Below are positions 16,013 through 56,945 of a stretch of 64,000 bases of DNA, piece after piece. Origin of the DNA: a virus; the IMG/VR virus record IMGVR_UViG_3300039412_000320; one strand, given 5' to 3'. Positions within the stretch are counted from its first letter, which is position 1, and every line of letters starts with the position of its first letter. The position numbers and the translations under genes are program-made. Under the pieces are notes generated by a model that was not told the DNA's origin, made no database searches, and saw nothing but the letters and a program-made list of their open reading frames with translations.

Positions 16013-16780
16013 ATGTTTATTTATCTTATCGTCAACCATGTGACCGGCAAATACTATGTCGGTCAGCATAAGGGGAATAACCTTAAAAAGTATCTTCAAA
16101 CAAAAATGTCTTCTGCTAGGTATCGTCACAGGGGAAACTCTCATCTTTTCAATTCAATGCGTAAGTATCCTCAGTCTACTTTATGGTCCATCCATGCTCT
16201 TCGTTCCGATATACAGACTCGTGAGGAGCTTGACGAGACCGAAAAAGACTTCATCCGGTTCTTACGGTCGCAAAACCCTGAGTACGGCTACAACATATGC
16301 CGGGGAGGGGAGGGACGAACTGGACCACATTCTGAAATCTCTCGCAAGAAGACCTCTAATTCAATTAAAAAAGCATGGATGATACCAGAAATACGAGAGA
16401 GACTTATAAGTAATAGACGAGGTAAGACCCACAATCGAGGATGTCTTATTCCATATGAAGCACGGATTCGGGGTGGAAAAATTGGAGGAAGTATAAAAAG
16501 TGATGTAAAAATCCAGCATTGTAAAAATATCGCCCATTTAGGGGGGATTATTGGGGGACTTGCTACTAATGCTACCACTAATGGTCGTAAAAGTAGAGGG
16601 GGTCGTGCCAGCGTTCTTAAAATGACTACAGAAACAAGGATTCTCGCAGGTACCAATGGAGGTAAAGTGACCGCCAGTAAACCGGGATTTTTGATTGAAA
16701 TAGGACGGATTGCTCGGTGTAAACACTGGCAAATAGGCCGTGGTAAGCCGTGTATATGTGGTCATCACAACAGCCTTTAG
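16013..16780 (+). CDS. GIY-YIG homing endonuclease (paralog family A) with C-terminal C..W.I.RGKPC.CG.H module
   Basis: 'MFIYLIVNHVTGKYYVGQHKG'; 'CKHWQIGRGKPCICGHH'; class A motif at 15983-16005. Confidence 0.8.
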   Translation: MFIYLIVNHVTGKYYVGQHKGNNLKKYLQTKMSSARYRHRGNSHLFNSMRKYPQSTLWSIHALRSDIQTREELDETEKDFIRFLRSQNPEYGYNICRGGEGRTGPHSEISRKKTSNSIKKAWMIPEIRERLISNRRGKTHNRGCLIPYEARIRGGKIGGSIKSDVKIQHCKNIAHLGGIIGGLATNATTNGRKSRGGRASVLKMTTETRILAGTNGGKVTASKPGFLIEIGRIARCKHWQIGRGKPCICGHHNSL

Positions 16781-21046: not shown

Positions 21047-21742
21047 ATGTTCATTTATCTGATTGTTAATCATGATATCGGCAAATATTATGCCGGTCAA
21101 CATAAGGGGAATAATCTTAAAAAGTATCTTCAACAGAAATTTAACCATGCTCAAAGGGGGATTTCTGGCCAATCTTACCTTTATAATTCAATGCGGGCAC
21201 ACCCAGACTCCAAGGTCTGGTCCATTCATGCCCTTCGTTCGGATATCCAAACAAAAGAAGAGCTTAACGAAACCGAGAGGGATTTTATCAAATTTCTGCG
21301 GTCACAAGACCCCGAGTATGGGTACAACATTTGTCGGGGCGGAGAAGGATTCACCGGACCGCATACGGAGGAGACTCGAAAAAGGATATCTCACATTGTT
21401 AAAAATGCATGGAAGACCCCGGAAAAGCGAAAAAATATGCAGTGTAATGGTAATCATCAGTCTCGTGAAGTTAGGGTTCGTAACGGTCAAAAATTAGGTA
21501 AGTGGGGTGTGGAAACCGGGCACCTATTAAAGATTTCTTCACTTGGTTCTCTCGCACAACCTCGTGAGGACAAAGTGAGGGCAGGAAAAATTGGTATTCA
21601 GAGAGGACTTTTGAAACGGACCAAAGAACAAATGACCCTTGATGGTAAGAAAGGGGGATTGTTGGGAGGAAAAATCTCTTGTTGCAAACGTTGGAATATT
21701 GACCGTGGGAAACCGTGTGTTTGTGGAAAGCACCTAAAATAG
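21047..21742 (+). CDS. GIY-YIG homing endonuclease (paralog family A)
   Basis: 'MFIYLIVNHDIGKYYAGQHKG'; 'CKRWNIDRGKPCVCGKH'; class A motif at 21014-21038. Confidence 0.8.
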   Translation: MFIYLIVNHDIGKYYAGQHKGNNLKKYLQQKFNHAQRGISGQSYLYNSMRAHPDSKVWSIHALRSDIQTKEELNETERDFIKFLRSQDPEYGYNICRGGEGFTGPHTEETRKRISHIVKNAWKTPEKRKNMQCNGNHQSREVRVRNGQKLGKWGVETGHLLKISSLGSLAQPREDKVRAGKIGIQRGLLKRTKEQMTLDGKKGGLLGGKISCCKRWNIDRGKPCVCGKHLK

Positions 21743-23754: not shown

Positions 23755-24695
23755 GGACTCCCAAGGAAATCATCTTGAGGTTCCCGGAAGCCTTGCCGGA
23801 CGTGGACCATTGGCTTGTCATGGGGTTGGACCCCAGCCTCTCCCGCACCGGGTATGCGATGATGCATGTCATCCTGCCCGAAGACCCCCACAAAGGCCAA
23901 CCCTGTAAGCATCCCGGATGTCTCAGCCATGTATCCCACCCTTGTGAGGAATGCGGACGCACGGCGGGCATGTTCGGTACCTACGCTGATTGGACACAGG
24001 TGGGCAGTGTCAAGCCGGATTCTTCCAAAGACCCCATTTGGATTCGCAGCAAGGGTATCTCCCTGTTCCTCAAGGAACGTCTCAGTGAAGCGGCCACAAC
24101 CATCAAGTTCGAGGATTTTCTTGCCATAAACAATGGGCAGCCCAGCGTCACTCCCATTCATACCATGGGTCTGCTCATTGCCACGGAGCATCCCACGCCG
24201 ACCAACGATTACCTTGTGGCATTGAACCGTATTATGCATCTTGTTCTGTTCGATGGAGACTTGTGGAAGAAGTTTGCCGTGGTAAAGATTCTCTCCATCA
24301 ATGCCAGCACCTTGCGTAGCCTCATGGGCCTGTCCCAGCGGGGAACTACCAATAAGAAAGAGAACATCCTCAAGGCTTACGAGTTTATTGACAAGACCCG
24401 GTTTCCGGCTCTGGACCCTGATTCCTGTGACGCCGTTCTGTTGGCGATGATGGGGCGGTATGTATCCAGCATATTGCTCGGTCGGCCTCGTGAAATCCCG
24501 GAGAGGGTCCTCCAGTCACTTTGCAACTCCGCCCAAATCTCCAAGGGCAAGGGGCGTAATCAACATTTCGTAACGGCAGGAGTTTTGCATCGTCCTGAGT
24601 ATTTCTATGAGTATCAAAAATTAACTTTCAAATTCTTGAGTAGGGATGCAAGCTCAACGGAACGAAAACTCGATGTGTGTGAGTACCAAATCTAA
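23751..24695 (+). CDS. RuvC-like Holliday junction resolvase with Zn-ribbon insertion
   Basis: 'LVMGLDPSLSRTGYAMM' and 'DSCDAVLLAMMG' are RuvC-like; inserted 'CKHPGCLSHVSHPCEECG'. Start uncertain (GTG 23751 or TTG 23730). Confidence 0.5.
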   Translation: MRTPKEIILRFPEALPDVDHWLVMGLDPSLSRTGYAMMHVILPEDPHKGQPCKHPGCLSHVSHPCEECGRTAGMFGTYADWTQVGSVKPDSSKDPIWIRSKGISLFLKERLSEAATTIKFEDFLAINNGQPSVTPIHTMGLLIATEHPTPTNDYLVALNRIMHLVLFDGDLWKKFAVVKILSINASTLRSLMGLSQRGTTNKKENILKAYEFIDKTRFPALDPDSCDAVLLAMMGRYVSSILLGRPREIPERVLQSLCNSAQISKGKGRNQHFVTAGVLHRPEYFYEYQKLTFKFLSRDASSTERKLDVCEYQI

Positions 24696-25410
24696 GGCCC
24701 GTCATTTGGTTGGGAAAACATTTGGGTTGTGGTTTGTCATATCTTACAAAGGTCGGGGAGTTTATCAATGCCGATGTAGATGTGGAACTGAGAAACCGGT
24801 ATACGGTTCCAATCTTACTCAAAAGAAAACTGGGAGTTGCGGGTGTGTACCTTTTCCCACCAGAAAAGCATGGAATTTCAAAGACCTTTCCGGTAAAAGG
24901 TTTGGTTTTTTGGAGGTACAAGAACTAGACCATGTTGAAAAAAACCGGGTTTTTTGGAAGTGCCTGTGTGTTTGTGGAAAGATTTTACCTGTAAGTACCA
25001 ATAATTTATCCCGCACTACTAGTTGTGGGTGTCGGCGCTATGCCAATCTTTTAGAACCCAAAGAGTTTCTGAGTGGACGGGTATACCGTGAGTATAAGAC
25101 CAGTGCTAAGTCTAGGGGATTGAAATGGGGGCTAGAGAAAGAATTATTCTTGAGTTTAATTTTTCAACCCTGCCATTATTGTGGAGCACCCCCCAGCAAT
25201 GAAGCGGTTACCCGTCGTCTTTACAATAATGGAAAGCTGCCCTACAATGGGATTGATAGGAAAGATATCCATAAGGGATATATTCCGGGCAATGTAGTTC
25301 CTTGTTGTCGTATATGTAATTGGGCAAAACAACAACTTTCCTATGAAGAGTTTTTGAATCATATAAGAAAAATGGCAGTTCATCTCAGTATTCTATCACA
25401 GGAGGAATAA
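24646..25410 (+). CDS. HNH homing endonuclease
   Basis: 'CHYCGAPPS...YNGIDRKDIHKGYIPGNVVPCCRICNWAK'; class A motif at 24623-24645. Confidence 0.8.
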   Translation: MQAQRNENSMCVSTKSKARHLVGKTFGLWFVISYKGRGVYQCRCRCGTEKPVYGSNLTQKKTGSCGCVPFPTRKAWNFKDLSGKRFGFLEVQELDHVEKNRVFWKCLCVCGKILPVSTNNLSRTTSCGCRRYANLLEPKEFLSGRVYREYKTSAKSRGLKWGLEKELFLSLIFQPCHYCGAPPSNEAVTRRLYNNGKLPYNGIDRKDIHKGYIPGNVVPCCRICNWAKQQLSYEEFLNHIRKMAVHLSILSQEE

Positions 25411-26747
25411 TGGCAAAGGCAGCCGCAAAGAAGAAGAAGGAAAAGGAACTCAATTTTGAAATGCCGACTGGCAGTCCCCGGACTTGGACGGTGGAACAGC
25501 GGCGTAATGCCCTTGCTTACTTGCGCAAGGATACGAAGTCCGACCATCGTATCTACGGCAAGGACTTTCAGGAAATCCTTGTTCCCTATGGTCACTTCGT
25601 CTTTGACAAGGTTCTACGGCTCGGCGGTATCGCCCGAGGCGGACGCATTACGCAGATACACGGCAATGAGGGCGCTGGCAAGACCACCACTGCCTTTGTA
25701 AACGCCGCCAATTACCAGCAAGCAACCGGTGAACCCATCGCTATCTTCGAGTACGAACCGGCCATTAGCGCCCAGTACGCTTACGCTCTCGGTGTTGACC
25801 CCGACCTCTGTTTCTTCGAGCAGCCGTCCAACTTGCAAGAGTCCATCAAGCGGCATATTCAGCTTCTCACCAAATATGGTATCCGCTACTTCGTGGATGA
25901 CTCCATCCCGTTCATGCAGATGAAGGTGGAGCTTAAGGATATTGAAAGCGGCAAAGCATTCCGGGCTAACTACGGAAGCCATGCTAAGGGCATCACCACG
26001 TTCTACAAGTTTCTCACTCCTCACCTTATGGAGCAGGATGCCCACCTGACCATCATTAACCAGACTCGTGCCCGTATGGACGACGATGCGGAGAACGCTT
26101 CCCACTGGAGTTACACTAACCGGGAATACAGCCTGCCGGGCGGATATATGGCGAGGTTTGCTCCCAGCGTGATGCTGGAACTCATTCTGGAAACGGAAAT
26201 CAAGCCGTGGAGTTGGGATAAGATGCCGGACAAAAAAGAACAGTGGCTTCTCATCCAGCCCATGGGTGAAGTGCTCAAAAACTACCCGACCGCTAACAAG
26301 GTCCGGGTTCGCTCCCTCAAGAACAAGGTGACGGGCGGCGGCTACCGGGAAGCCTTCGTCTACGTCAGGCCCAACTTCGGCATTGACGAGAACATGAGCA
26401 TCCGGGAGCTTGCCTGCGGGTATGGCTTCATTGAGTACGACAAAAAGAAGTGGTTTGTCGGCAAGTCCGCCGACGACGCCATCATCACCTATGCCAGCAA
26501 AACAGAGCTTGTCGAAGACCTCGTTATCAAGCAAAACCCGGAGGTTCTCGGGAAGCTCAAGGGCATGGTTTTGGATGCCGTGGAGCACGATGAAACCGAG
26601 CGCTTCAAGGGTGAAGGTCTCAGTGAAGCGGAAAAGGCATTCCTCGAAGAGCCAGCGGGGAGCTACCCCGATGAGGAAGATTTTGGTGAAGTCCCCACCG
26701 CAGAATCTCTTGAAAATGCAGTAACAGAGATAGACGAACTTAAGTGA
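25410..26747 (+). CDS. RecA/UvsX-like recombinase
   Basis: 'LGGIARGGRITQIHGNEGAGKTTTAF' is a RecA-type Walker A; SD GGAGG. Confidence 0.7.
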   Translation: MAKAAAKKKKEKELNFEMPTGSPRTWTVEQRRNALAYLRKDTKSDHRIYGKDFQEILVPYGHFVFDKVLRLGGIARGGRITQIHGNEGAGKTTTAFVNAANYQQATGEPIAIFEYEPAISAQYAYALGVDPDLCFFEQPSNLQESIKRHIQLLTKYGIRYFVDDSIPFMQMKVELKDIESGKAFRANYGSHAKGITTFYKFLTPHLMEQDAHLTIINQTRARMDDDAENASHWSYTNREYSLPGGYMARFAPSVMLELILETEIKPWSWDKMPDKKEQWLLIQPMGEVLKNYPTANKVRVRSLKNKVTGGGYREAFVYVRPNFGIDENMSIRELACGYGFIEYDKKKWFVGKSADDAIITYASKTELVEDLVIKQNPEVLGKLKGMVLDAVEHDETERFKGEGLSEAEKAFLEEPAGSYPDEEDFGEVPTAESLENAVTEIDELK

Positions 26748-26753
26748 GGTGGC

Positions 26754-27059
26754 GTGGCTCTTTTTATTTTACTGTTTTTGGTCCTTGTAGTTCTTAATAT
26801 CTCTGATGGGATAACTACCTATATGGGACTTAAGAAAACGGAAAATGAGGAGGTAAACCCCATTGCATCTTGGTTGATGTGTAAAATCGGCAGTATTCCT
26901 GGAATTATTGTGGTGAAGGTCTTAGCCTTAAGCACCATTGCGGCTGGGATTTTCATTGTCGGTGTGAGGGGTGCCCCAGGGGTGGATATCACACTTTCTA
27001 TCCTGATAGCAGTTTACATTTGGGTTGTCGTTCATAACATCAAGGTTATTTACAAATGA
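26754..27059 (+). CDS. small integral membrane protein (3 predicted TM helices)
   Basis: Hydrophobic segments; stop/start overlap (ATGA) with the next gene. Confidence 0.5.
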   Translation: MALFILLFLVLVVLNISDGITTYMGLKKTENEEVNPIASWLMCKIGSIPGIIVVKVLALSTIAAGIFIVGVRGAPGVDITLSILIAVYIWVVVHNIKVIYK

Positions 27060-29326
27060 AACTATCCGGTAAGAATTTTCAACCATGGAAAGATTTCTCC
27101 CTTATTGTGGACGGGTTGACATTGATTGTCGGACCGTCGAATAAGGGTAAGTGTCTTGCTCCAAATACTCCTGTTCTTATGTATGACGGGACAAATAAAT
27201 TAGCAAAGAACATAGGTGTAGGTGACTTTCTTATGGGGCCGGATAGCACGCCTCGCACCGTTCTTAGTATTTCCCACGGGTTTGATGATATGTATGAGGT
27301 TTTGCCCAATAAAGGGGGCTTCGATGGTTCTTGGGGGTGTAATCAGTATCACATTTTGTCCTTGATTTGCCGATTAGATGGAAAAAAACGTCGTCTCAGT
27401 CCCTTACAGTTAAGACAATGCAGGGTGGAGATTTCAGTTAAGGACTTTCTTTCCAAAAGTGCTACCTATAAACGGAATGCCCGTTTGCATCGTTCGGGAG
27501 GTATAGATTTTAAGTGCCGGGTAGATAAAAAATTTGAACCTTATTTGGTGGGCTATTGGCTTGGCGATGGTACCACCGATTTACATAAATTAGAAGTAAC
27601 AACCGCCGACCTTGAGGTTGTAAACTATTGTCGAAAACTTGCCACCAAGTATGGTCTCCATCTTATACCCAATGATGATGATTCCTACCGATTTTCTACT
27701 AAACATAAAGGAAGTCGAAGTAATGCCCTTCTTAACCGTTTCCGGTTGTTAAAGTTGGTGGATGCAGACGGAAAATGCATACCACATAGCTATCTGGTTG
27801 GCTCAAGGGAAGATAGACTTTTACTATTGGCTGGGTTGCTAGATTCTGATGCTGGATTAGAACCGTCTCAATTTGCCTTTTGTTCGCAGTTTGAGCGACT
27901 TGCTAAACAAGTGGCATTTTTAGCGAGGTCTCTCGGGTTTAGGGCATCTATTTCTCCTAAGTTAAACAAACGATACAATAAGATATACCATACGGTTTTA
28001 ATTTTCGGGAATTTGCCTAGTATTCCTACTATCATAAAGCGAAAAAAGGCATTATCGCAATCCAAAAAATCTTGTTTAACAACGGGGTTTAAAATAAAGC
28101 ATAAAGGGTGGGGAGAATATTTCGGATTTGAGTTGAGCGGGGATGGGCTTTTTCTTCTTGGTGATTTTACTATAACTCATAATAGCTCCATCTTCCGTGC
28201 CCTGCGGGGGGTATTCCGCAATGAACTCCCGCAGGATTTTGTCCGTAATGGACAGGATGAGAAGATGGAAGTGACTCTTGAGGTTGAGGGTGTCAACGAC
28301 CCCATCAGGGCCACCCGGACCCGCAAGGGTTCCACCAAGTACGCCATTGGTGAAGATGAAAAGGGTAAGCCGATAGAGTATAAGGCTCTCGGCGATAGTG
28401 TCCCCGAACCCATGAAGGTGCTCAAGTATGGCACCGTCAAAGTGGGGGACACAACCATAGACCCCATCTTTTCTCAACAGAACAAGGCACAATTCCTCAT
28501 TGACCCCGACGCATGGAAGCCCAACGACCTGAATGCCATCCTTGGGGCCTTTGCCTCTACCGAAAAATTGGATGCAGGGAAGAAGGAAGCCAACCGGCGC
28601 ATTACCGAAAAGAACGGGGAAGCCCGAACGCTCGCCGAAGAAATCCGTGAGGCAGAGGAACGCCGGGGTAAACTTGAGAGGTTTAATGCCTCGGCACAGG
28701 ACTCCGCCCACACCGTGTCTGGTTATGAGGCAAAGGTCAACAGCTATGAGTCATTGTTGGCCTCGCTGACCGAGACACTTACAAGGACGAATCGGATAGC
28801 GAAGATGCGGTCCTTCATCCTCAAGCTGTCTGTGCCGGATGTATCCCCCATTGAGAAACAGGAGCGCCTCGCCCGGATGTATGCCGAGGCGGTAAAAATC
28901 CTCCGTCGCCGGGAAGTCACGGGACAGGTGGTACATGGCATTGACAATACTATAGTCCAGTGGGACCTTGTGGCTAAGGGGTACAAACGCAAGCAGGCGG
29001 TTCTATCCCTGTTGGAAATTGTCGAAAGAAAGGGAGCAAGCCCCAAGGAGTGCGGGGAGAAGTTAGAGGGTGTGCTACAAGAAGCCAACTTCCTACTCGG
29101 AGTCATTGCTCACTACCTCTCGGCGCTTAAGAACATCAACTTGTTGGCAGAGGCATTGAAGCTCCCCAGCAAGAAGAGTGAGCTTAAGTTTACGGAAGAG
29201 GAACTGGACGCCGCTAACGCCAAGGTTAACTCTTTGACGTTGCTTCTGTCCAAGGAATCCAAACCGAAATGCCCGGACTGTGGTACGGAGCTATGCTGCC
29301 CGTCTTGTCAACCGGAATCGAGGTAG
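27056..29326 (+). CDS. SMC/SbcC/RecF-family P-loop ATPase N-terminal half + coiled coil, interrupted by an intein
   Basis: Extein 'MKLSGKNF..LTLIVGPSNKGK|SSIFRALRGVF' gives an SbcC/gp46-like N-terminus; long coiled coil; ends 'CPDCGTELCCPSCQ'; no signature/Walker B region. Confidence 0.55.
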   Translation: MKLSGKNFQPWKDFSLIVDGLTLIVGPSNKGKCLAPNTPVLMYDGTNKLAKNIGVGDFLMGPDSTPRTVLSISHGFDDMYEVLPNKGGFDGSWGCNQYHILSLICRLDGKKRRLSPLQLRQCRVEISVKDFLSKSATYKRNARLHRSGGIDFKCRVDKKFEPYLVGYWLGDGTTDLHKLEVTTADLEVVNYCRKLATKYGLHLIPNDDDSYRFSTKHKGSRSNALLNRFRLLKLVDADGKCIPHSYLVGSREDRLLLLAGLLDSDAGLEPSQFAFCSQFERLAKQVAFLARSLGFRASISPKLNKRYNKIYHTVLIFGNLPSIPTIIKRKKALSQSKKSCLTTGFKIKHKGWGEYFGFELSGDGLFLLGDFTITHNSSIFRALRGVFRNELPQDFVRNGQDEKMEVTLEVEGVNDPIRATRTRKGSTKYAIGEDEKGKPIEYKALGDSVPEPMKVLKYGTVKVGDTTIDPIFSQQNKAQFLIDPDAWKPNDLNAILGAFASTEKLDAGKKEANRRITEKNGEARTLAEEIREAEERRGKLERFNASAQDSAHTVSGYEAKVNSYESLLASLTETLTRTNRIAKMRSFILKLSVPDVSPIEKQERLARMYAEAVKILRRREVTGQVVHGIDNTIVQWDLVAKGYKRKQAVLSLLEIVERKGASPKECGEKLEGVLQEANFLLGVIAHYLSALKNINLLAEALKLPSKKSELKFTEEELDAANAKVNSLTLLLSKESKPKCPDCGTELCCPSCQPESR
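27152..28183 (+). mobile_element. Intein (344 aa) with LAGLIDADG homing endonuclease domain inserted in the Walker A P-loop
   Basis: Begins 'CLAPNTPVLMYDG', ends 'ITHN' followed by Ser; DOD motifs 'LVGYWLGDGT' and 'LLAGLLDSDAG'. Confidence 0.8.
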
Positions 29327-29328
29327 AT

Positions 29329-29925
29329 ATGGGAAAACTTGAGGGCGCTGATTTTCGGGATAAGGATTATGATGCATATGATAACCCCGGAAAATCTGCC
29401 TTAATTGAATTCCTGTCCCAACGGGAAATCTGGGCAAAAAAACTCCGTGAAGTTGGACTTGGCGATGTTCAGGTTTATCTAGGACCACGTCATCCCGAGG
29501 GTAAGTGGGTGACGGGGGATGTGGAAATTAGAGATGAAAAGCGGAGCGACAATCCGTGGGTGATGCACAACGGTCACCCTTGCTTCAAACACAACACAGT
29601 TTCCATATTTGACAGACGGAAAGACTCCCCGGCGCTCTTTCAGTTTAGTTTCTCTCTTGATGGTTTGAATGCATACACTGTCCTTACGGAGGATGTCCCA
29701 AAGGGGAAGTATTTTCTTGCAGATTTCAGTTATCGTAAGGAGGATGCTTCACGTCACATCTCCTTTAGGCTGGCCCTGATGTTTCATCGGGGTTCTCGCC
29801 AAGACCTTTGGAAGTTATGCGATGGTACATGCTGGGGGACCTTTTTATGCGAAGATGATATTGACCCCACCCCCCATCAAATTCGACTGTTGAATATACT
29901 CAAATTTGAGTGGATTAGACCTTAA
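29329..29925 (+). CDS. hypothetical protein
   Basis: ATG preceded by GAGGTAGAT; the track's earlier start overlaps the upstream gene. Confidence 0.5.
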   Translation: MGKLEGADFRDKDYDAYDNPGKSALIEFLSQREIWAKKLREVGLGDVQVYLGPRHPEGKWVTGDVEIRDEKRSDNPWVMHNGHPCFKHNTVSIFDRRKDSPALFQFSFSLDGLNAYTVLTEDVPKGKYFLADFSYRKEDASRHISFRLALMFHRGSRQDLWKLCDGTCWGTFLCEDDIDPTPHQIRLLNILKFEWIRP

Positions 29926-29964
29926 AGGTCCAGCCGGAATTAGTATTATAGTGAGGAGGATTAC

Positions 29965-30261
29965 ATGCCCGACATCCAAGAACAGTTGCGCACTGCTCAA
30001 GCAAGAGTGAAAACCTTGGCAGGCAAACGAGACCAGCTTAACCGGGAAGTGGGGGTTGAGGAGCAGAAGCTCAAGCAGGTCCATGATAACCTCCGGGCAC
30101 TTAACATCAGCAACCCCGAGCGTCTGTCGGTGGAGGAGCTTAAGAAGCTCGCCGAGGATACCCAGTTGGAGTTGGAAAAGAACCTGAGTAGCCTCATGGC
30201 CTCCCTTGAGAACGGTGAGTCTTTGCTCAAAGACTACGAACAATTTCAACAGGCACAGTAA
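29965..30261 (+). CDS. small coiled-coil protein
   Basis: Class B motif + SD GAGGAGG upstream; heptad-rich. Confidence 0.5.
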   Translation: MPDIQEQLRTAQARVKTLAGKRDQLNREVGVEEQKLKQVHDNLRALNISNPERLSVEELKKLAEDTQLELEKNLSSLMASLENGESLLKDYEQFQQAQ

Positions 30262-30941
30262 TGGAAAATGAACAGCTTCCGGCAATCGAAGAGCTTGTCG
30301 GGCAGGAGGTTAGTCTTGAGCGGGATGCCGTTCAAAACTTCTATCGTAGCTCATATGGGGGCATCAATCCTGACCGGTGGGAACGAGCCAACAACGAAAT
30401 CCCGTTTCAGGATGTCGTAGCGGAGCTTACCGGTCATCGTGATACGGTCATCCGCTGCCCCTTTCATGGTCGTGACCGCACGCCGTCTTTTACCCTCTAT
30501 TCCCGCACCAATGACGCTTATTGCTTTGGATGTCCGCCCGGCAGCATGTTGTATGACAATGTAACCTTTGTATCCAAGTATATGGAACTCAGCCGGGTGC
30601 AGGCTCTTTACTGGCTGGAAAAAACCTTCAACCTTCCCTCCATACCTAATATGCTGGTTGACGACGAGGAAGAAGAGGGTGGTGTTTTAAGCTTCTGGGA
30701 CCTTGCGGAGCACTTTATTTTGAAGGCGCAACGAGATGTTCAGGAAACCAAGGATGCGGAGCTTGCCGAAGACTACATCCGCATCTACTTCACTGGGTTG
30801 ACGCTGGAAAAGAGCGCCAAGGATGCGGAGAGGAGCGATGAGGTAGACCCACAGGAGTTGCACTTGCAAGCCACGGTAGGGCTTGCCGAAGTGCTGGGCA
30901 AGGAAGAGTTGACGGCAATCGCCGATGGAAAGGTAATTTAA
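30261..30941 (+). CDS. CHC2 zinc-finger protein (DnaG primase N-terminal-like), no TOPRIM domain
   Basis: 'CPFHGRDRTPSFTLYSRTNDAYCFGCPPGS'. Confidence 0.6.
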   Translation: MENEQLPAIEELVGQEVSLERDAVQNFYRSSYGGINPDRWERANNEIPFQDVVAELTGHRDTVIRCPFHGRDRTPSFTLYSRTNDAYCFGCPPGSMLYDNVTFVSKYMELSRVQALYWLEKTFNLPSIPNMLVDDEEEEGGVLSFWDLAEHFILKAQRDVQETKDAELAEDYIRIYFTGLTLEKSAKDAERSDEVDPQELHLQATVGLAEVLGKEELTAIADGKVI

Positions 30942-30958
30942 GGAGTACTATATAGAGC

Positions 30959-33900
30959 ATGGCAAAGGTTAAGAAAGAAAAAGTCACCACCGACGATTTG
31001 AAGAAGGTTAAGAAGAAGAAAGTCGTCAAGCTCCGGGACATTCGCACCATGTTCCGGGAGATTCTTGCCGAGCTTTCCGCTGGCGGTGGTGTAGCCAAAG
31101 TCAAAAAAGACTGGATGAGTAAGAAGGCGTTCGAGATTGTCGATACGCCCGAAGCCCTACAGAAGTGGGTTGACGAGGTTCTCACCAATGCTCCCCGCTT
31201 TGAGTTTTACGGGGTCACCGAACCAGTTGTGGCTTTGGATACGGAAGACGTGAGCCTTGACACCCGGCTCTTTATCAGGATGGTGAAGCTGCCTGATGGC
31301 TCCTACCACCAAGAGTATGAAATCAAGACCGATATTTCCGGCATCTGTCTCTCTGCCGATGGTGTCAAGGGCATATACATCCCCATCACCCATGAGTTTC
31401 AGGACCTTGCTCTCACCACCCCGGCCCGCAACATAGACCGCAGGATATGCGCTGAGATTCTCCAGCCGTTCTTCAATCAGGTACACCTTGTTTTTTACAA
31501 TGGGAAATTCGACCGGGAAGTCATGCGCCTCACCATGGGCATTGTCTTTCGTCCTTATCCTCACTTTGAAGATGTGCAGGTTTTGCAATACATTGATGAC
31601 CCCAAAGCTGACATGGAAGACAAGCAGTTCTATACGGGGGATAGCGGCGGCTTGAAGGCGTTGTCCAGCAACCTGCTGGGTATTGAGCAAATCGAGCTTG
31701 AGGAAATCGCCAAGGTCAAGGCGGATACTTGTCCCCACAATGGCTCTCCTTTCTGCTCCTGCACGTTGGAGCAGAAGAAAGAGAATAAGCACGGGCTTAA
31801 GCAGCACTTTGTTCCTTTCAGTTGGATACCCGTAGACATCGCTCTCTATTACGCCGCCTCTGATGCCATTTGTACTTGGCTTCTATGGGAAAAGCTCCAT
31901 CCCCTTGCCCGGACCCGCAAGACCGTGCATCGCATCGACCATGAGCTTGTTGACTCTATCACTTGGATTGAACGGCAGCGGTTCCTTATCGACACCGACC
32001 GTCATACTCGCACTGTCAAAGGGCACCAACGGGTTCTCGCTCAATTTCAGAAGAAACTGTATGACCTTGCCATAGCGGCTGGGTACAAAGAGAATGCCAC
32101 TGATGACGGTGTGGTGTTACCTCATGACCGTTTTAATCCCGATTCCAATGACGACCTGCGCATACTTTTCTTTGATGTCAAAGGATATGCTCCCCTCAAG
32201 ATGACGGATGGTGGGAAGAGCGGCGTGAAGAAAGCCTCGTGTGATGCCGAGGTGGTGGAAGACCTCCACAAGCTGCACCCGGAGGATGAGTTCCTCGAAG
32301 TATTCTCAGACTACAAGAGCTACATCTCCCTACACCCTTCCAGCCTCCACTATGACCCGAGTGATGGCACCGCCCGCATATACCTCAAGCAGAATGTGGT
32401 CTCCGGGGGACGCCTGTCTTCCGCTGGCGGTGACTTTTACAAGGATGGTGGGTTCGGTCTTAACAGCCAAGCTGTGAAAAAGGTGGAAGGTTATTTGATG
32501 TGGAAAGTGACGGGAAATGTCCTCATTCCCGATGAGATTCCCGAAGACCAGATAGAACCCCACACCGAGGAAGAGCTTCACCCTTCATGTTTCAGGGAGA
32601 TGGAAGAGAGTTACATCGTTGAAGAGCACGATGAGGAAGTAGCGGCGGAGCCAGCCGGGGATTGGGTTGATGGTAAGCCCCGTTCCACGATTAAACACGT
32701 CGTTACCATGGGCAAGCGCAAGGTCAAAAAGCGGGCTCCCGGTATTATCCATAATCATATGGGTCAGTACATGGGTTATACCGTTTGTCTGGTGCCGGGC
32801 TGTCAGACCTGCAAAGATAAGTTTGGCTTCCTTATTGAGAACGGTAAGATTGATGCCAACCAGAGAGTCAATCTCCGCTGCTTGTTCTACTCGCCGCCCG
32901 GATGGACATTCTTCACCGTTGACTACGGCAATATCGAAATGCGTGCCGCCGCCAACTGCTCGGGTGAGCCGGAATTCATCAATGAGTTTTTGCATGGCAA
33001 GGGTGACTTCCACTCCCTCACTGCTAGCAAGGTCTTCCCGGAGTTCTCCGACTCCAAGAGTCCTAACTACCGTGCTAAGCACCTGCGTGACTTGGCAAAA
33101 ATCATCAATTTTGCACTTTTATACGGCGGTATCGCCTACACCATTTACGAGAACATGAAGAAGCAGGACCCCAACATCACCTTCCAACGGTGCGAGGAAA
33201 TGGTGGAAAACTACTGGAAGGGCGTGCCGGTGTTCTTCGAGTTTTGCCAGCGCAAACAAGCAATTGCCCGAGACCAACTCATTTGCACCACCACTACGAA
33301 TCGAGTCATCAAGTTTGACTCCGCCATGAAGGCGCTACACATTCATGTCCCGAACGAGGAGGAAAAGAAGAACCTATGGCAGTATCGGGATTACATGAAA
33401 AAGTCGAAGGAGCTTAGGGAAGCTGATGACCCCCGGTGGAAAGAGTATCTCAACCTTGCCAACTCCATGTGGAAGAACCCCGACACTGGCGTTCGCAATA
33501 CCATGGACTACAGCAAGTTCATGGGCAAGATTCAGCGGGTCAGCGTTAATGCCCCCATTCAAGGACTCTGCGGGGATTTCATGCGGATGTCTCTCAACAA
33601 GATTCGCCAGTGGGTTGAAGCAGACCCGCTTATTGCAACCATCTTCATGTTGCATTGTTCGGTTCACGATGAAATCGACTTTTCCGTGAAGAATGAATAC
33701 GTGCCTTTCGTTCTCCCCCGTATCACTCGCATGATGAAGTTGCGCAAGCTGCACCAGATTATGAAGTGGCAGGTGCCCATCGAAGCGGATGCTGAATATG
33801 GATCCAGTTGGGACGTTGAACACCATGTGACCGGTGATGATGACCACATCCCCGCCGCTTGGACAAGGGTATCCGGTATGGACAGGTACCTCCCCGGCGA

Positions 33901-34654
33901 GTGGGATAGTGCGACTATCAAGAACCTGATAAAAGCCATCTCTTCGCAGGTGGAAGCTCGGGTCGAAAAGGCAAAAGCCTTCCTCAAGGAAAACCTGCAC
34001 GAGCGGGCCTTCCAAGCGGCTTGGTGGTGCTTCAACAAGAAGAAGGGGAAGAAAGAAGTCGTACTTCAGACCGACCCCAAGGAAATCCAGCGGGCGCTCA
34101 TAGCGGCTATTCAGCTTGATGAATTCTGGCGTATTGACAATATGCCCGACGAGGATGATGCGAAGTTGGAGACCTTGGAACAGTACGAAACTCGGATGGG
34201 CCTTGGACCGGCTGACCGTAACCCGGCAGCTTTGATATATGGACCTCTCGGTTCTCTGCCCTTAGACGCTCCGGTGAAACGCTATGTCCCCGAACCCCTG
34301 AAAGTGGAGATTTCGTGGAATTCACCACAGGAAGCGTCAGAAGGGGTTGGGGGTACCCAAGGTACCCTCAATCTGTTCGTCGCAGCGGAGAACCTCCCTG
34401 TAGCCCCGCCAGAACCCACTGTAGCTCCCCCCGTGGTAGATTCCACCCCCCAAGTACCGGAAACCAAGGGACCCCCTCCCGGTGTAACCGTGTACGATAT
34501 CTCCGGGGCCGACCAGCTTACCCTTATGCAAATCGACATCACTCTGGGTAAGGGGGACAAGTCCGTATGGGTGCTTCATGATGGCATACGGATGTGCCTT
34601 CATGACCGAGCCATGGACTCCGTTCCCGAACATTACCTCAAGAAACCTGCCTAA
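30959..34654 (+). CDS. Family A DNA polymerase with 3'-5' exonuclease domain and ~330-aa C-terminal extension
   Basis: Exo motifs 'ALDTEDVSLD', 'YNGKFD', 'YYAASDA'; motif A 'DYGNIEMRAAAN', motif B 'RAKHLRDLAKIINFALLYG', motif C 'HCSVHDEIDF'; Pro-rich tail. Confidence 0.85.
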   Translation: MAKVKKEKVTTDDLKKVKKKKVVKLRDIRTMFREILAELSAGGGVAKVKKDWMSKKAFEIVDTPEALQKWVDEVLTNAPRFEFYGVTEPVVALDTEDVSLDTRLFIRMVKLPDGSYHQEYEIKTDISGICLSADGVKGIYIPITHEFQDLALTTPARNIDRRICAEILQPFFNQVHLVFYNGKFDREVMRLTMGIVFRPYPHFEDVQVLQYIDDPKADMEDKQFYTGDSGGLKALSSNLLGIEQIELEEIAKVKADTCPHNGSPFCSCTLEQKKENKHGLKQHFVPFSWIPVDIALYYAASDAICTWLLWEKLHPLARTRKTVHRIDHELVDSITWIERQRFLIDTDRHTRTVKGHQRVLAQFQKKLYDLAIAAGYKENATDDGVVLPHDRFNPDSNDDLRILFFDVKGYAPLKMTDGGKSGVKKASCDAEVVEDLHKLHPEDEFLEVFSDYKSYISLHPSSLHYDPSDGTARIYLKQNVVSGGRLSSAGGDFYKDGGFGLNSQAVKKVEGYLMWKVTGNVLIPDEIPEDQIEPHTEEELHPSCFREMEESYIVEEHDEEVAAEPAGDWVDGKPRSTIKHVVTMGKRKVKKRAPGIIHNHMGQYMGYTVCLVPGCQTCKDKFGFLIENGKIDANQRVNLRCLFYSPPGWTFFTVDYGNIEMRAAANCSGEPEFINEFLHGKGDFHSLTASKVFPEFSDSKSPNYRAKHLRDLAKIINFALLYGGIAYTIYENMKKQDPNITFQRCEEMVENYWKGVPVFFEFCQRKQAIARDQLICTTTTNRVIKFDSAMKALHIHVPNEEEKKNLWQYRDYMKKSKELREADDPRWKEYLNLANSMWKNPDTGVRNTMDYSKFMGKIQRVSVNAPIQGLCGDFMRMSLNKIRQWVEADPLIATIFMLHCSVHDEIDFSVKNEYVPFVLPRITRMMKLRKLHQIMKWQVPIEADAEYGSSWDVEHHVTGDDDHIPAAWTRVSGMDRYLPGEWDSATIKNLIKAISSQVEARVEKAKAFLKENLHERAFQAAWWCFNKKKGKKEVVLQTDPKEIQRALIAAIQLDEFWRIDNMPDEDDAKLETLEQYETRMGLGPADRNPAALIYGPLGSLPLDAPVKRYVPEPLKVEISWNSPQEASEGVGGTQGTLNLFVAAENLPVAPPEPTVAPPVVDSTPQVPETKGPPPGVTVYDISGADQLTLMQIDITLGKGDKSVWVLHDGIRMCLHDRAMDSVPEHYLKKPA

Positions 34655-34690
34655 TAAACCACCTATCGTTCTCTTCTATAGGGGGAGACC

Positions 34691-35119
34691 ATGGGTAGAC
34701 TTCGATTATTCAATGATAAGGAAAAGTGGTGTTCCGCTTGTACATCATGGCTCCCATTGGATGCTTTTTCAAAATTGAAGAGAGAACCTTCCGGTAGAGC
34801 AACCTATTGTCGGCTCTGCAAAAAGAAAAAAAATCAAAAATGGGGGTATAAACATCAGAAAAAGTATACCCATAATCACCTCTATGGGATTACACTGGAA
34901 GAACGAGAAATCTTGTGGGAAAAACAAAATAGATGCTGCGGGATATGTAAAGAACCCATCCCCGTGCAAGGGAATAAAAGTCATTTAGACCATAACCACG
35001 ACACTGGAAAAGTTAGAGGACTTCTTTGCCCAACCTGCAATATGGGAATAGGTCTTTTAGGTGAAGGAAGGTTTCTTATTGCCGCTATCCAATACTTAGA
35101 GAAGGCAGAATGCACATGA
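34691..35119 (+). CDS. Endonuclease VII-family (T4 gp49-like) HNH nuclease
   Basis: 'HLDHNHDTGKVRGLLCPTCNMGIGLLGE'. Confidence 0.7.
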   Translation: MGRLRLFNDKEKWCSACTSWLPLDAFSKLKREPSGRATYCRLCKKKKNQKWGYKHQKKYTHNHLYGITLEEREILWEKQNRCCGICKEPIPVQGNKSHLDHNHDTGKVRGLLCPTCNMGIGLLGEGRFLIAAIQYLEKAECT

Positions 35120-35757
35120 CCAAGAAATGCACGAAATGCGGAAGCTCTTACTACGGCGACCATCACAGGTGCGCTCACTCTCCCGTCAGGACTTTTAAGA
35201 CCCGAAAACAGATGGGATTGAAGGAGGGGGAACTCCCCTTCAAATTCCGAGCAGAGTTGGATGTTAAGGAGGATGGTGAGACGGAAGTAGTTCAAAAGAG
35301 AGCACTTCTTCGGCTAAACTCCCAACGGGTCTATTCTCAGATGGGGTGTGCCGTGCAAGCGTTAAACTCCATGAAGGAGTCGGCGAAGTGGCTCTCCCGG
35401 CTGCTTGACAACATGGACGAGGAGGACAAAACTGACATTTCTCCCGTTCTCGCCATGGTGGGAACCTCCCTATATGGTCTGGAGCAGCTTTCCGCCCAGA
35501 AAGTCAAATATGCCGTGCAGATGGAGGAATTACTCGAAAAGGAGCGGCGTAAGGCTCGCACCGTGCGGATGAGGATAGCCAAGGAGTCTGTGGATAAACG
35601 TAAGAAAAATAATGAGTTTGGAATTCTAAGAGCCGGAAGTCCGACGTTGGAGATGTTGCCAGTTGGCCTCGATAACGAGGTCATTTTGGAGCATTTTAGG
35701 CTACTTCCCAGAAACAGCGAGGCGGTGGATAGACCCACGGAAGAGCCGAAATCGTAA
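35110..35757 (+). CDS. hypothetical protein
   Basis: Overlapping start; N-terminus 'CTKCGSSYYGDHHRC'. Confidence 0.45.
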   Translation: MHMTKKCTKCGSSYYGDHHRCAHSPVRTFKTRKQMGLKEGELPFKFRAELDVKEDGETEVVQKRALLRLNSQRVYSQMGCAVQALNSMKESAKWLSRLLDNMDEEDKTDISPVLAMVGTSLYGLEQLSAQKVKYAVQMEELLEKERRKARTVRMRIAKESVDKRKKNNEFGILRAGSPTLEMLPVGLDNEVILEHFRLLPRNSEAVDRPTEEPKS

Positions 35758-35791
35758 TTTTTCCGCTTTCTATCCCCTTTATTGAGGACTT

Positions 35792-37945
35792 ATGGTTGAA
35801 AAGAAAACTACGACGACCCCCAAGAGCGTGTTGGTTAAGAGGGAACGGGGAGCCAATTTGCGTGTGGGGACCACCGAAATAAAGCGAAAGGTTGCTGCCA
35901 GCAAGGGTGGTAAGCAATACGCCTCCGCAGGCCCCCGGACCAGTATGACGAACGACGGAATGATTGCCGACGTTCTGGTTAGCCGGGTCCGCCAGATGGC
36001 GACCCAAGGCTCTCCCTTTGGGGCGCAGGGATGGGGGATGTACGAACTTACCCGCAACAAGACCGCCGCTCTGTTCAGTGATGGCACCCTCGGCAATGCC
36101 GACATCGCCGACAGCAACAACATTGGTTACTACAGCTACGAGTTTCCCGTAGACGCCCTCGAACTGCCAGCCAGCCGGGCGGAAGAACTCCGGTTCTATC
36201 GGCTTGCCTATGACCGGGACCCCATCGTCGGACGTGCTATCGACATGCACACCGAGCTTCCCCTGTCCAAGTGGGCATTAGAAAAGCCCAAGTGTTCCAG
36301 TGATGACTTTGCCGACTACGTTTACGACTTCTATCAGGGACTCATCAGCGGCACCAAGTTCTTTCAGGTTTTGATTCAGGCAGTCCGGGAGTATTGGACT
36401 ATCGGAGAGGCTTTCATCTTTATTCAGGAAGCCGAACCCGTTGAACCTTCCAAGCTGGCAAAGGCTCAGTTAGAAAAAGCGAAGGCTAAGAATAAGCAGC
36501 ATTCTAATTCTCAGTCCACCGAGCCGGGCATGGAAGGTGAAGGCTCCATGATGGGCGGTACATCGGATGCCATCTTGGACTTCCTCCAGCCTGAGAAGCG
36601 TTCAAGTTGGCTTAGAAAGAAATCCGCTGTTATCTGTGAAATCAAGAAGGCAGGCATTAAGTTCAATCTCTTCGCCCCCGATGAAACCATTGCCAACGTC
36701 AAGAATGAAATCCGCAAGAAGAAAATCAGCTACACAAAGAAAGCGGTCAGCATTAAGAGCTTCATCAAGCTGGCTATGGACAATAAAGAATCTAAACTCA
36801 TCTCCCGTGATGATGCTGACGATGACTACCCTATTCAGGTAAAGGTCGCCGCTCCTCCTGATGCGGGCGCACCCCCACCCGCTGGTGGAGAGGGAGCGCC
36901 GATGGGAGACGCCGGGTTGGAAGGCGTTGCTGGTGTAGACCCCATGGGAGAACCCGGTGGAGACCTTCCTCCCGGTGACTTGGGTGGAGATTTAGGTGGA
37001 GATTTAGGTGGAGGCGGTGGGCTTCCCCCTATGGGAGGCGGTGGTGGAGGGGGAATGCCTCCCGAGCCGACGACCCCCGGCGACCAAGTGGGTGCGGTGC
37101 AGAATGCCATTGCCCAAGGGTCAACCCTCGCCAAGCAAAAGGAGCTTCTCGAACTCAAACGCATCATCAAACTGTTGGAGAAAAAGAAGCAGGTTTTGGA
37201 GGAGTTGCAGGAAATCCGTGAGAAGCGTAAGGAAGAAGAGGAGCTTTTCTCCCACTTGGAGAATAAAGACTACGAGGGCTTTGATGCCATCAATGTCCTT
37301 CCTCCCGAGCAGATAGAGCTTGAGGCCGGGGACAGCATGACAGCCGGGCCGACCGTATACTATAAACCGCTCGAAAAGCAGAAAACCGCATACCTTGAAG
37401 ACCCCGAGGTCGATTCCGAAGTCAAGGGTATGTTGGAAGCGGACGGCAAAGTTGCTTTGAACAAGGACCCCTTCGAGGGTTCTTACGTCATCCACTTCGC
37501 CCGCAAGAAGAGTGACTACGAGCTTCACGGTCGTTCTATCCTCCAGCGTTGTATCCGCACAGTCATCTACCGTGAAAAGCTGCGGCAAGTGCAGTCCACG
37601 TTGGCGTCTCGTAACATGACGCCCAAGACGTTAGTCATTGCTCCTGACATCCCGCCCGCCGAAGTTATGGCTCTTCGTGCGCACATTGACGAAGCCAAGG
37701 CCGACCCGGACTACAGCGTCGTGTTGAACTATGAGGCCCGGTGGGATGAAATTGGTTCAGATGGTAGGTTGCTATCTCTGGATGGAGAATGGCAGCACAC
37801 CAACTCTGACCTGTCTATTGGTCTTGGATTCAGCCCGGAAATCCTCATCGGTGAAGGACTCTATTCCGGCAACAAAGTCCAGTGGTCTCGCACAGTGTAC
37901 GTGGTTAATCGGGACGGAGACTTTGGACTAATTGAGTGCCCTTAA
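35792..37945 (+). CDS. putative portal or other virion structural protein with Gly/acidic-rich disordered segment
   Basis: 717 aa; 'FYRLAYDRDPIVGRAIDMHTELPLSKW'; '(GDLG)n GGGGG' tract; class A-like motif at 35766-35787. Confidence 0.35.
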   Translation: MVEKKTTTTPKSVLVKRERGANLRVGTTEIKRKVAASKGGKQYASAGPRTSMTNDGMIADVLVSRVRQMATQGSPFGAQGWGMYELTRNKTAALFSDGTLGNADIADSNNIGYYSYEFPVDALELPASRAEELRFYRLAYDRDPIVGRAIDMHTELPLSKWALEKPKCSSDDFADYVYDFYQGLISGTKFFQVLIQAVREYWTIGEAFIFIQEAEPVEPSKLAKAQLEKAKAKNKQHSNSQSTEPGMEGEGSMMGGTSDAILDFLQPEKRSSWLRKKSAVICEIKKAGIKFNLFAPDETIANVKNEIRKKKISYTKKAVSIKSFIKLAMDNKESKLISRDDADDDYPIQVKVAAPPDAGAPPPAGGEGAPMGDAGLEGVAGVDPMGEPGGDLPPGDLGGDLGGDLGGGGGLPPMGGGGGGGMPPEPTTPGDQVGAVQNAIAQGSTLAKQKELLELKRIIKLLEKKKQVLEELQEIREKRKEEEELFSHLENKDYEGFDAINVLPPEQIELEAGDSMTAGPTVYYKPLEKQKTAYLEDPEVDSEVKGMLEADGKVALNKDPFEGSYVIHFARKKSDYELHGRSILQRCIRTVIYREKLRQVQSTLASRNMTPKTLVIAPDIPPAEVMALRAHIDEAKADPDYSVVLNYEARWDEIGSDGRLLSLDGEWQHTNSDLSIGLGFSPEILIGEGLYSGNKVQWSRTVYVVNRDGDFGLIECP

Positions 37946-42155: not shown

Positions 42156-42905
42156 ATGTTCATTTATCTCATTGTTAACCACGAGACCGGTAAGTACTAT
42201 GTCGGTCAGCATAAGGGGAACAATCTAAAGAAATATCTTCAGCAGAAGTTTCACCACGCCCAAAGAGGTATCTCAAACCAATCTCGCCTTTATCAGTCTA
42301 TGCGAGCACACTCAGACCCCTCTTCTTGGTCCATACACGCCCTCCGGGCCGACATCACTGACCGAGAAGAGCTTGACCAAACTGAACGGGATTTCATCAA
42401 GTTCCTGCGGTCGCAGGACCCTGAGTATGGGTACAATATATGCCGGGGTGGGGAGGGAAGAACCGGACCCCTTTCAGATGAAACTCGTAAGAAGATTGGA
42501 GAAGGTAATAAGGCTGCTTGGGCTAATCCAGAGACTAAACAGTCCCGCATTGACAGCATACGGAAATGTATGTGTAACCGAGAGGTGTCTCAGGAAACAA
42601 GACAAAAATTGAGCAATGCATTAACGGGCAGAGAAGTTCCAATTGAGGAAAGAATCAAGATGAGTAAAGTAGCGAAAGGAAGAAAGCAGGCTCCCGAATG
42701 CACTGCTAAAATATCCGCATCCAATCGTGGTAGAAAACGGTCGGAAGAATTCCGTGCTAAGTGCAGACAGAGGGTTGTGTCAGATGAGACTAGAGCCAAA
42801 CTTAGTAAAATAGCGAGTGCGAGACGGCTTTCTCCCGAGATACGTGCCAAAATCAGTAAAAGCACACAGGGAAGACAACGGGATAAGCTAGGACGTTTGC
42901 GCTAA
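42156..42905 (+). CDS. GIY-YIG homing endonuclease (paralog family A) with NUMOD repeats
   Basis: 'MFIYLIVNHETGKYYVGQHKG'; class A motif at 42126-42147. Confidence 0.8.
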   Translation: MFIYLIVNHETGKYYVGQHKGNNLKKYLQQKFHHAQRGISNQSRLYQSMRAHSDPSSWSIHALRADITDREELDQTERDFIKFLRSQDPEYGYNICRGGEGRTGPLSDETRKKIGEGNKAAWANPETKQSRIDSIRKCMCNREVSQETRQKLSNALTGREVPIEERIKMSKVAKGRKQAPECTAKISASNRGRKRSEEFRAKCRQRVVSDETRAKLSKIASARRLSPEIRAKISKSTQGRQRDKLGRLR

Positions 42906-56798: not shown

Positions 56799-56945
56799 AA
56801 TCCTCCTGTGGCGGTGTTTGTTGGCGTTATCACTACTGATGGGGGTGATAGTTGGCGTTTTGGGTACATTCCATGCACTCGCCGTTACATCCCCTTGATG
56901 GAGCATTCTCTGCGCATGATGTCTAATACTACAATTTCCCGATTC

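Follow-up and report, generated by a model that had tools for sequence, protein, structure and literature searches.

The 64,000-nucleotide (nt) viral DNA stretch IMGVR_UViG_3300039412_000320, hereafter called the window, contains a Rad50/SbcC-like gene that is interrupted within the nucleotide-binding P-loop by an in-frame insert of 344 amino acids (aa). The insert was confirmed, beyond chance, to be a class 1 intein with a two-motif LAGLIDADG endonuclease. We interpret it as an intein of the PI-SceI/VMA type with a probably active endonuclease, located in the P-loop of a half-Rad50 protein of a jumbo phage and gained by homing. The probability of this reading as a whole is estimated at about 85%. 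An earlier note, made from the letters of the window without database searches, had proposed a LAGLIDADG intein in the P-loop of an SbcC/SMC-like ATPase, and the results that bear on its claims are given below.

Anatomy and fold of the intein

The junctions of the insert read LIVGPSNKGK↓C...THN↓SSIFRALRG, where the arrows mark the predicted splice points (coordinates of all features are given in Table 1). The intein boundaries proposed in the earlier note were exact to the base, with the codons TGT at the start of the intein, CAT-AAT at its end and AGC for the first C-extein residue (Ser+1) lying in one open reading frame (ORF); the AGC codon, at 28184-28186, is in frame with the intein end. 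The intein parts the Walker A lysine from the following serine (GPSNKGK↓S), as the note had stated, and the intein-free homologue P0001 (see below) reads through the same site as GKSS.

In profile searches with the isolated 344-aa insert, Hom_end_hint matched at 2.3e-15 (57.7 bits versus a Pfam cut-off of 32.1), LAGLIDADG_3 at 1.9e-9 (38.1 bits versus 22.5) and Hom_end at 6.5e-6 (26.7 bits versus 21.1). The Hint blocks that the earlier note expected were therefore detected, and both of its dodecapeptide motifs, LVGYWLGDG and LAGLLDSDA, were recovered. The insert has the features of a class 1 intein, namely Cys1, the block B N..H pair, a terminal His-Asn followed by Ser+1, a Hint fold and an in-frame insertion at a conserved site. 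Several cysteines beyond Cys1 are also present. Since all residues required for class 1 splicing and for LAGLIDADG catalysis are conserved, we infer that the protein has both activities.

The precursor was aligned with its 120 closest intein-bearing relatives (121 sequences). H99, G166, G170, G260 and G357 were invariant in this alignment, and C33, N96, D171, K240, D263, D265, H375 and N376 were conserved in at least 90% of the sequences. The C-terminal HN was present in 114 of the 120 listed relatives. A phmmer search of the Protein Data Bank (PDB) matched PI-SceI, the yeast VMA1 intein (E 1e-10), over the N-terminal Hint region and the endonuclease/C-terminal Hint region, placing Asp171, Asp265 and Lys240 (in GKCIP) opposite PI-SceI Asp218, Asp326 and Lys301. 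Modelled with AlphaFold2 on the 121-sequence alignment, the precursor had a predicted local distance difference test score (pLDDT) of about 93-98 over residues 33-376. The best Foldseek match of the modelled intein in the PDB was again PI-SceI (E 1.7e-25, target-normalised TM-score 0.65), followed by TliVMA, PhoVMA, PI-PfuI and the monomeric LAGLIDADG enzyme I-DmoI; the Prp8 and gp41-1 inteins were also among the matches.

Intein-free allele and natural polymorphism

The conceptually spliced 412-aa extein was searched against 5.8 billion proteins, which yielded 139 homologues. The 120 of these that were listed are 302-488 aa long, and all are intein-free. The best match, P0001, is itself 412 aa long and 97% identical to the extein, and reads ...GPSNKGKSSIFRALRG... 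across the insertion site. It corresponds in length and junction (GPSNKGKSSIF, with a seamless GKSS) to the predicted ligation product. The P0001 gene is located on a 364-kb contig, L002, in the same gene order as in the window: UvsX-like recombinase, host gene, 198-aa ORF, 98-aa coiled-coil ORF, primase zinc-ribbon protein and DNA polymerase A.

Nineteen metagenomic contigs, from at least six samples, encode exactly the 756-aa intein-plus protein and nine encode the intein-free P0001, indicating that the intein is polymorphic in nature. With 19 independent contigs, it is unlikely that the intein-plus allele is an assembly chimera. Six intein-plus contigs were examined, and the host gene showed no DNA difference among them, pointing to one recent haplotype. 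A megablast search of positions 25400-31000 against 50,697 phage records gave no match; the nearest cultured relative, at the protein level only, is gp181 of Tunturiibacter phage Tunturi_5 (42.6% identity).

Sequence divergence around the insertion site

The DNA flanking the intein differs from the intein-free L002 more than its surroundings do. In the N-extein, 20 of 96 nt were mismatched (21%), with only three amino acid changes. The proportion exceeds the ~9% of the neighbouring UvsX-like gene (p about 5e-4 in a binomial test and 0.001 in a Fisher exact test). At 13 of these 20 positions the window has A or T where L002 has G or C. On the 3' side, mismatches were concentrated in the 120 nt of the C-extein next to the junction (Table 1), compared with 31 of 1,020 nt (3%) in its remainder (Fisher p = 3e-4 for the proximal excess). 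Ser+1 itself is encoded by AGC in the window but by TCC in L002.

The N-extein and the intein belong to a block of low G+C content (~41%) that extends from ~26750 to 28183, whereas the neighbouring core genes have 52-54%. The block begins with a DUF5658 ORF, the stop codon of which overlaps the host-gene start (ATGA). All five intein-plus loci with upstream DNA (L057-L061) contain this ORF, whereas neither L002 nor any of the 51 IMG/VR loci of the host family does, and it seems to have travelled along with the intein. The joint occurrence of the intein, the N-extein and the DUF5658 ORF in one low-GC block points to homing with co-conversion, and the N-extein is probably donor-derived. The simplest reading is a single recombination import, by homing with co-conversion from an unsampled lower-GC relative, of about 1.4 kb on the 5' side and about 120 nt on the 3' side. 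As explanations of the insert, a transposon with target duplication and a group I or II intron were rejected: a repeat search around it and an Rfam scan of 24000-31000 were both empty.

Over a longer range, the identity between the window and L002 is mosaic, at ~91-93% over 13.6-26.7 kb, 97.3-97.5% over 28186-34653 and ~93% over 35117-37883. The middle segment corresponds to L002 10099-17031, runs from the C-extein through polA and contrasts with ~87-94% identity in the other shared region. This indicates that a replication-gene block of roughly 6.5 kb was recently exchanged between the two lineages.

The host protein

After removal of the intein, the extein matched AAA_23 at 2.1e-8 with 35.5 bits, above the gathering score of 27, and gave weaker matches to AAA_15 and AAA_21. 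With the intein retained, the AAA_23 score falls to 16.3 bits, below the threshold, and the homology match to gp8 of Bacillus phage 0305phi8-36 is also lost. The AAA_23 result shows that the intein hides the host gene from annotation. The spliced extein further matched PHROG 16465 'exonuclease' (8.6e-17) and PHROG 77 'SbcC-like subunit' (1.9e-7). In a 47-sequence alignment of the family, G26, G31, K32 and S33 (Walker A), Q131 and C395 were invariant, and a C-terminal CxxC...(H/C)xC element was present. Q131 is a plausible, putative Q-loop glutamine. The C-extein completes the N-lobe and continues with a coiled coil of ~230 aa and a CPDC...CPSC knuckle at the C terminus.

The AlphaFold2 model of P0001 (mean pLDDT 75) comprises a beta-rich N-domain followed by helices over residues 159-389. 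Its best PDB matches in Foldseek were the N-terminal halves of SMC/Rad50 heads (5h66_A at 1.9e-5, 3qkr_A and 1f2t_A), consistent with the earlier expectation that the extein would align with such heads; later matches included Smc5/6, RecN and RecF. The Rad50 hook entries 6zff and 1l8d gave a weak profile match (E about 0.1), and the cysteine knuckle of the host lies at the extreme C terminus and not at a coiled-coil apex. The best PDB match by sequence was the N terminus of an OLD-family ATPase (1e-5). Neither the 412-aa extein nor any of the 47 aligned homologues has the signature motif, Walker B, D-loop or H-loop.

The assignment to the SMC/Rad50 type follows from the AAA_23 match once the intein is removed, the PHROG matches, the Foldseek matches to N-lobes and an SbcD-like neighbour in relatives. 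The most fitting description of the host is that of an N-terminal half of a Rad50/SbcC-type head, with a Walker A/Q-loop lobe, a coiled coil and a cysteine knuckle. The description of the host in the earlier note, as an SbcC/SMC-like ATPase with a RecF/SbcC/Rad50-type head domain, is thus supported for the N-lobe by AAA_23, PHROG and Foldseek; it does not extend to the signature, Walker B and H-loop elements, because the protein is only half of such a head. The protein can be an ATPase only if a separate C-lobe partner exists.

Search for partner genes

Partners of the half-Rad50 protein were sought in the window and in related loci. A hidden Markov model (HMM) of the C-lobe, constructed from 0305phi8-36 gp5 and three metagenomic homologues, gave no match in the window or in closer relatives. 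The HMM detected gp5-like C-lobe ORFs in only three distant loci (L050, L054 and L056), 2.1-2.5 kb downstream of the N-lobe gene. Two regular-expression scans of all six frames of the window for the ABC signature plus Walker B returned spurious matches only, and Pfam and PHROG scans of ~45 window ORFs revealed no C-lobe gene.

The conserved neighbourhood of the host gene includes the UvsX-like recombinase and, in 34 related loci including that of Tunturi_5, an SbcD-like ORF 1.3-4.9 kb downstream. An SbcD HMM made from these 34 loci had no match within the 64-kb window. The sole nuclease candidate for the SbcD role in the window is the ORF at 55527-56906 with metallophosphoesterase motifs (Table 1); it may be a diverged Mre11/SbcD-type partner nuclease, 26 kb away and on the opposite strand.

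Proposed mechanism and alternatives

According to the mechanism that we propose, the 756-aa precursor would be translated with its Walker A motif physically split, and ATP binding would not be expected at this stage. Splicing would begin with an N-S acyl shift at Cys1 and would proceed through attack by the Ser+1 hydroxyl, cyclisation of Asn376 aided by His375 and an O-N shift. The predicted products are a free 344-aa endonuclease and a ligated 412-aa protein with the P-loop GPSNKGKSS restored. In a mixed infection, the endonuclease would cut the intein-free allele across the junction between ...AATAAGGGGAAG and TCCTCCATC..., and recombinational repair would then copy the intein along with flanking extein DNA. 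The window lineage most likely acquired the intein together with the N-extein and the DUF5658 ORF from an unsampled lower-GC relative.

Several points weigh against this interpretation. The steps of splicing and cleavage are ones that we infer from conserved residues. Given the mosaic baseline of identity to L002, the left end of the import is not placeable, and part of the contrast in divergence reflects other recombination. The identity of all six intein-plus contigs leaves no within-allele variation to show purifying selection on the endonuclease. The host has no C-lobe, the 64 kb yielded neither a partner for it nor a family-type SbcD, and its ATPase function is putative.

One alternative is that the intein splices while its endonuclease is inactive or decaying, late in the homing cycle. 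In that case inheritance of the intein would be vertical, with unrelated mosaic recombination as the source of the flank divergence. The genome is strongly mosaic relative to L002, and most of the DNA-recognition insert of PI-SceI is lacking (344 versus 454 aa, with the alignment gap between residues 52 and 127). However, both catalytic aspartates and the Lys301 equivalent are conserved in an intact ORF, natural polymorphism exists between the intein-plus allele and an intein-free one of 97% identity, and to either side the divergence increases precisely at the junction, where AT-rich codons resemble those of a donor. We consider an inactive endonuclease unlikely.

The identity of the host gene is a separate matter. 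The OLD-family match as the best PDB hit by sequence, the weaker AAA_15 and AAA_21 matches and a polypeptide without Walker B or signature motif would also fit another ABC-type N-lobe protein (OLD, AAA_15 or Septu/Gabija-like) or a nucleotide-binding structural coiled-coil protein. The neighbourhood argues otherwise, with its UvsX-like recombinase and the SbcD-like nuclease of the 34 related loci, as do the top structural matches to SMC/Rad50 N-lobes and the Rad50 hook region. In addition, 0305phi8-36 gp8 joins SbcD to the same N-lobe, coiled coil and CPTC, with the C-lobe encoded separately as gp5. A host outside the SbcC type is, in our estimate, about as improbable as the loss of endonuclease activity.

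By analogy with P-loop and ATPase-domain inteins of RadA and DnaB, for which conditional splicing has been described (PMC4513877, PMC6195587), the intein could act as a post-translational switch, with redox- or temperature-sensitive splicing gating the assembly of the repair ATPase. The several extra cysteines of the intein would be compatible with such a role. A 97%-identical intein-free allele nevertheless coexists, and more than 98% of the family is without any intein, so that a regulatory role is not required; we rate the switch as somewhat less likely than either of the preceding alternatives. It is very improbable that the insert does not splice and has left the host gene as an inactivated pseudogene or a dispensable gene, because Cys1, N..H, HN and Ser+1 are intact, the insert is in frame and free of stops, and the extein keeps all family-invariant residues at 97% identity to the intein-free protein, although a gene lacking a detectable C-lobe or family-type SbcD in the window could be dispensable, which is not direct support.

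Distribution and novelty

When 1.84 billion cluster representatives were searched exhaustively with a profile, 174 members of the host family were found at E<=1e-30. This family proper, a half-Rad50 with a cysteine knuckle, is poorly characterised. Among the best 150 members, only two (P0121 and P0295) have an insert after profile position 32, and none of the 51 IMG/VR loci of the family has an intein. Inteins are thus rare in this family, with 3 in about 150 representatives.

P0121 (587 aa) was recognised as a member of the same family from sequence alone. Its intein, at the site between GK and S/T, is 49% identical to that of the window over its full length, and its N-lobe extein is 52% identical; on these sequence grounds it is assigned as an allelic intein. 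P0295, a metagenomic protein of 819 aa from the same family, carries a 371-aa insert at the same codon (GK↓...HN↓T). In contrast to the window intein, this insert starts with alanine (AQPLDCKVL...) and not cysteine, its N-terminal Hint similarity is not detectable, and its identity to the window intein (29%) is confined to the endonuclease and C-terminal part. By sequence it represents a separate lineage at this codon, and the alanine start suggests non-class-1 splicing and an independent invasion of the site.

The 120 closest inteins (33-49% identity) are all located in Walker A motifs, ~88 of them between K and S/T and ~25 at G↓(S/T)GK(S/T). Their hosts include PhoH, AAA_24, DEAD/ResIII helicases, ABC transporters (ABC_tran), UvrD, DnaB, thymidine kinase, AAA+, KaiC, terminase and RecA. 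More than 12 other ATPase families carry close intein relatives in Walker A. No SbcC, Rad50 or SMC host appeared in the Pfam annotations of these top 120 matches. The P0121 intein is the nearest, and the other 119 share 33-42% identity with the window intein.

Insertion between the lysine and threonine is the 'classic' P-loop insertion of Kelley et al. (2016, PMC5050341). Many P-loop intein hosts are given by Novikova et al. (2016, PMC4760082), the main text of which does not name SbcC, Rad50, RecF or RecN. Homing between the P-loops of non-homologous proteins was described by Gallot-Lavallee et al. (2023, PMC10710043), and a 2025 actinophage survey proposed extein switching via shared nucleotide-binding sites, with SbcC/Rad50 unmentioned (bioRxiv 10.1101/2025.01.02.630785). 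No report of an SbcC or Rad50 intein host was found in the searched literature, which for Novikova et al. covers the main text, in agreement with the remark in the earlier note that an intein in an SbcC-like host is much less commonly described. The element type and its site are thus well known, and the host family is new to the searched literature.

A tentative proposal, which we regard as more doubtful than probable, is that the intein belongs to a PI-SceI-like clade that is actively switching exteins among the Walker A motifs of unrelated ATPases in the phage community. At least 12 host families have inteins at 33-42% identity, barely under the 49% of the sole allelic partner. If the proposal is true, half-Rad50 proteins would be hosts that inteins have colonised only sparsely, with one codon occupied by at least two intein lineages (Cys1 and Ala1), and the co-circulating alleles would be a natural system for non-allelic homing into nucleotide-binding sites.

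Current understanding is not overturned by these results, and they hold no conceptual surprise. They add a repair protein of the SMC/Rad50 superfamily to the hosts of P-loop inteins, and the 97%-identical plus and minus alleles with their divergence gradient, which is consistent with co-conversion, offer a view of homing in a natural, uncultured population of jumbo phages.

Other genes in the window

The homing-type enzymes of the window include GIY-YIG, HNH, EndoVII and LAGLIDADG proteins, and a weak RuvC-like match and a metallophosphoesterase exonuclease are also present. The genes for the GIY-YIG, HNH and EndoVII enzymes stand free and are numerous. The intein had been counted as a fifth endonuclease class in the window; several homing-type classes do occur, but the count is loose, as HNH and EndoVII are both His-Me finger enzymes. 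Paralogous GIY-YIG/NUMOD3-type genes, mostly starting with MFIYLIVN, are located at 2121-2768, 8794-9672, 10449-11435, 16013-16780, 21047-21742 and 42156-42905. These and the other measured endonuclease ORFs (HNH, EndoVII) have a G+C content of 38-48%, compared with 51-55% for core genes.

Two free-standing homing-endonuclease-like genes, at 24614-25400 and 34654-35116, are absent from L002. The second is a small ORF with an EndoVII motif that lies downstream of polA. The first, an HNH/EndoVII-like ORF (24646-25410), is missing from two intein-plus contigs as well, L058 and L059, indicating that mobile endonuclease gene content varies between near-identical genomes.

The DNA polymerase A of L002 is 155 aa longer than that of the window. 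A second intein was rejected as the cause of this difference, which is a variable acidic/basic linker without Hint motifs (window ~32609-32733, polA aa ~557-583; L002 14522-15111). A 218-aa ORF at 29269-29925 was considered as an insertion relative to related genomes and rejected; it is present in L002 as a 198-aa ORF and so has no link to the intein. This conserved 198-aa ORF (29329-29925 in the window) directly follows the host gene, is absent in Tunturi_5 and had no Pfam, PHROG or NCBIfam match. Its VTGDVEIRDEK segment resembles a D...E.K motif, and it might encode a PD-(D/E)xK nuclease.

Table 1. Features of the intein-containing gene and associated ORFs in the window
Feature	Positions	Strand	Evidence or remark
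DUF5658 small membrane-protein ORF, GC 40.8%	26754-27059	+	Pfam DUF5658 3.4e-12
Precursor gene, 756 aa, Rad50/SbcC-like N-lobe protein plus intein	27056-29326	+	one uninterrupted ORF
N-extein, 32 aa, terminating with Walker A GPSNKGK, GC 41.7%	27056-27151	+	
Intein, 344 aa (precursor residues 33-376), Hint domain with nested LAGLIDADG homing endonuclease, GC 40.7%	27152-28183	+	
Cys1 (C33), block A nucleophile for the N-S acyl shift	27152-27154	+	TGT codon
Block B, N-x-x-H (N96-Q-Y-H99 of the precursor)	27341-27352	+	
LAGLIDADG motif 1, LVGYWLGDG, with Asp171	27545-27571	+	HMMER alignment to PI-SceI
LAGLIDADG motif 2, LAGLLDSDA, with Asp265	27827-27853	+	alignment to PI-SceI
Block G, His375-Asn376 (penultimate His, cyclising Asn)	28178-28183	+	CAT AAT codons
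C-extein, 380 aa, first residue Ser+1 = Walker A Ser (S377), GC 53.9%	28184-29326	+	
Putative 3' co-conversion tract	28184-28303	+	13/120 nt mismatched to L002 (11%)
Candidate nuclease, 459 aa, metallophosphoesterase motifs (DWH, GDxxxGD, GADNH, EHGD, GHWH)	55527-56906	-	PHROG 284 'exonuclease' 3e-46; no Pfam match

Comparison with known systems

Like PI-SceI and the archaeal VMA inteins, the window intein has a Hint domain with a nested two-motif LAGLIDADG endonuclease, a block B N..H and a C-terminal HN. It shares with PI-SceI the catalytic Asp, Asp and Lys and an insertion in Walker A. The VMA1 intein is inserted at G↓CGKT, and in the phmmer alignment the PI-SceI-type intein begins at residue 284 of V-ATPase subunit A (9cop_A). 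The window insertion is two residues downstream (GK↓S versus G↓xGKT), and its +1 residue is serine and not cysteine. The two inteins are only ~20% identical, and that of the window is 110 aa shorter (344 versus 454 aa), with most of the DNA-recognition insert missing. The hosts also differ, a V/A-ATPase for PI-SceI and a phage ABC-type N-lobe in the window.

The classic P-loop inteins (TerL1-a, DnaB-b, PhoH, UvrD, RecA, RFC and MCM) are inserted at the same point, between the Walker A lysine and the Ser/Thr nucleophile, as described in PMC5050341 and PMC4760082. Their host families are different from the half-Rad50 family.

The host protein resembles Rad50/SbcC proteins such as T4 gp46 and E. 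coli SbcC in its N-lobe fold, Walker A, conserved glutamine, long coiled coil and CxxC element, and the recombinase and, in relatives, SbcD-like nuclease genes nearby are a further common trait. In contrast to these, it ends at the cysteine knuckle, without a return coiled coil or C-lobe. A comparable division is seen in Bacillus phage 0305phi8-36 (locus L063), in which gp8 is an SbcD nuclease fused to the same N-lobe, coiled coil and CPTC, and the 236-aa gp5 is a separate C-lobe with SRGGG...IILDEP...VTHQ.

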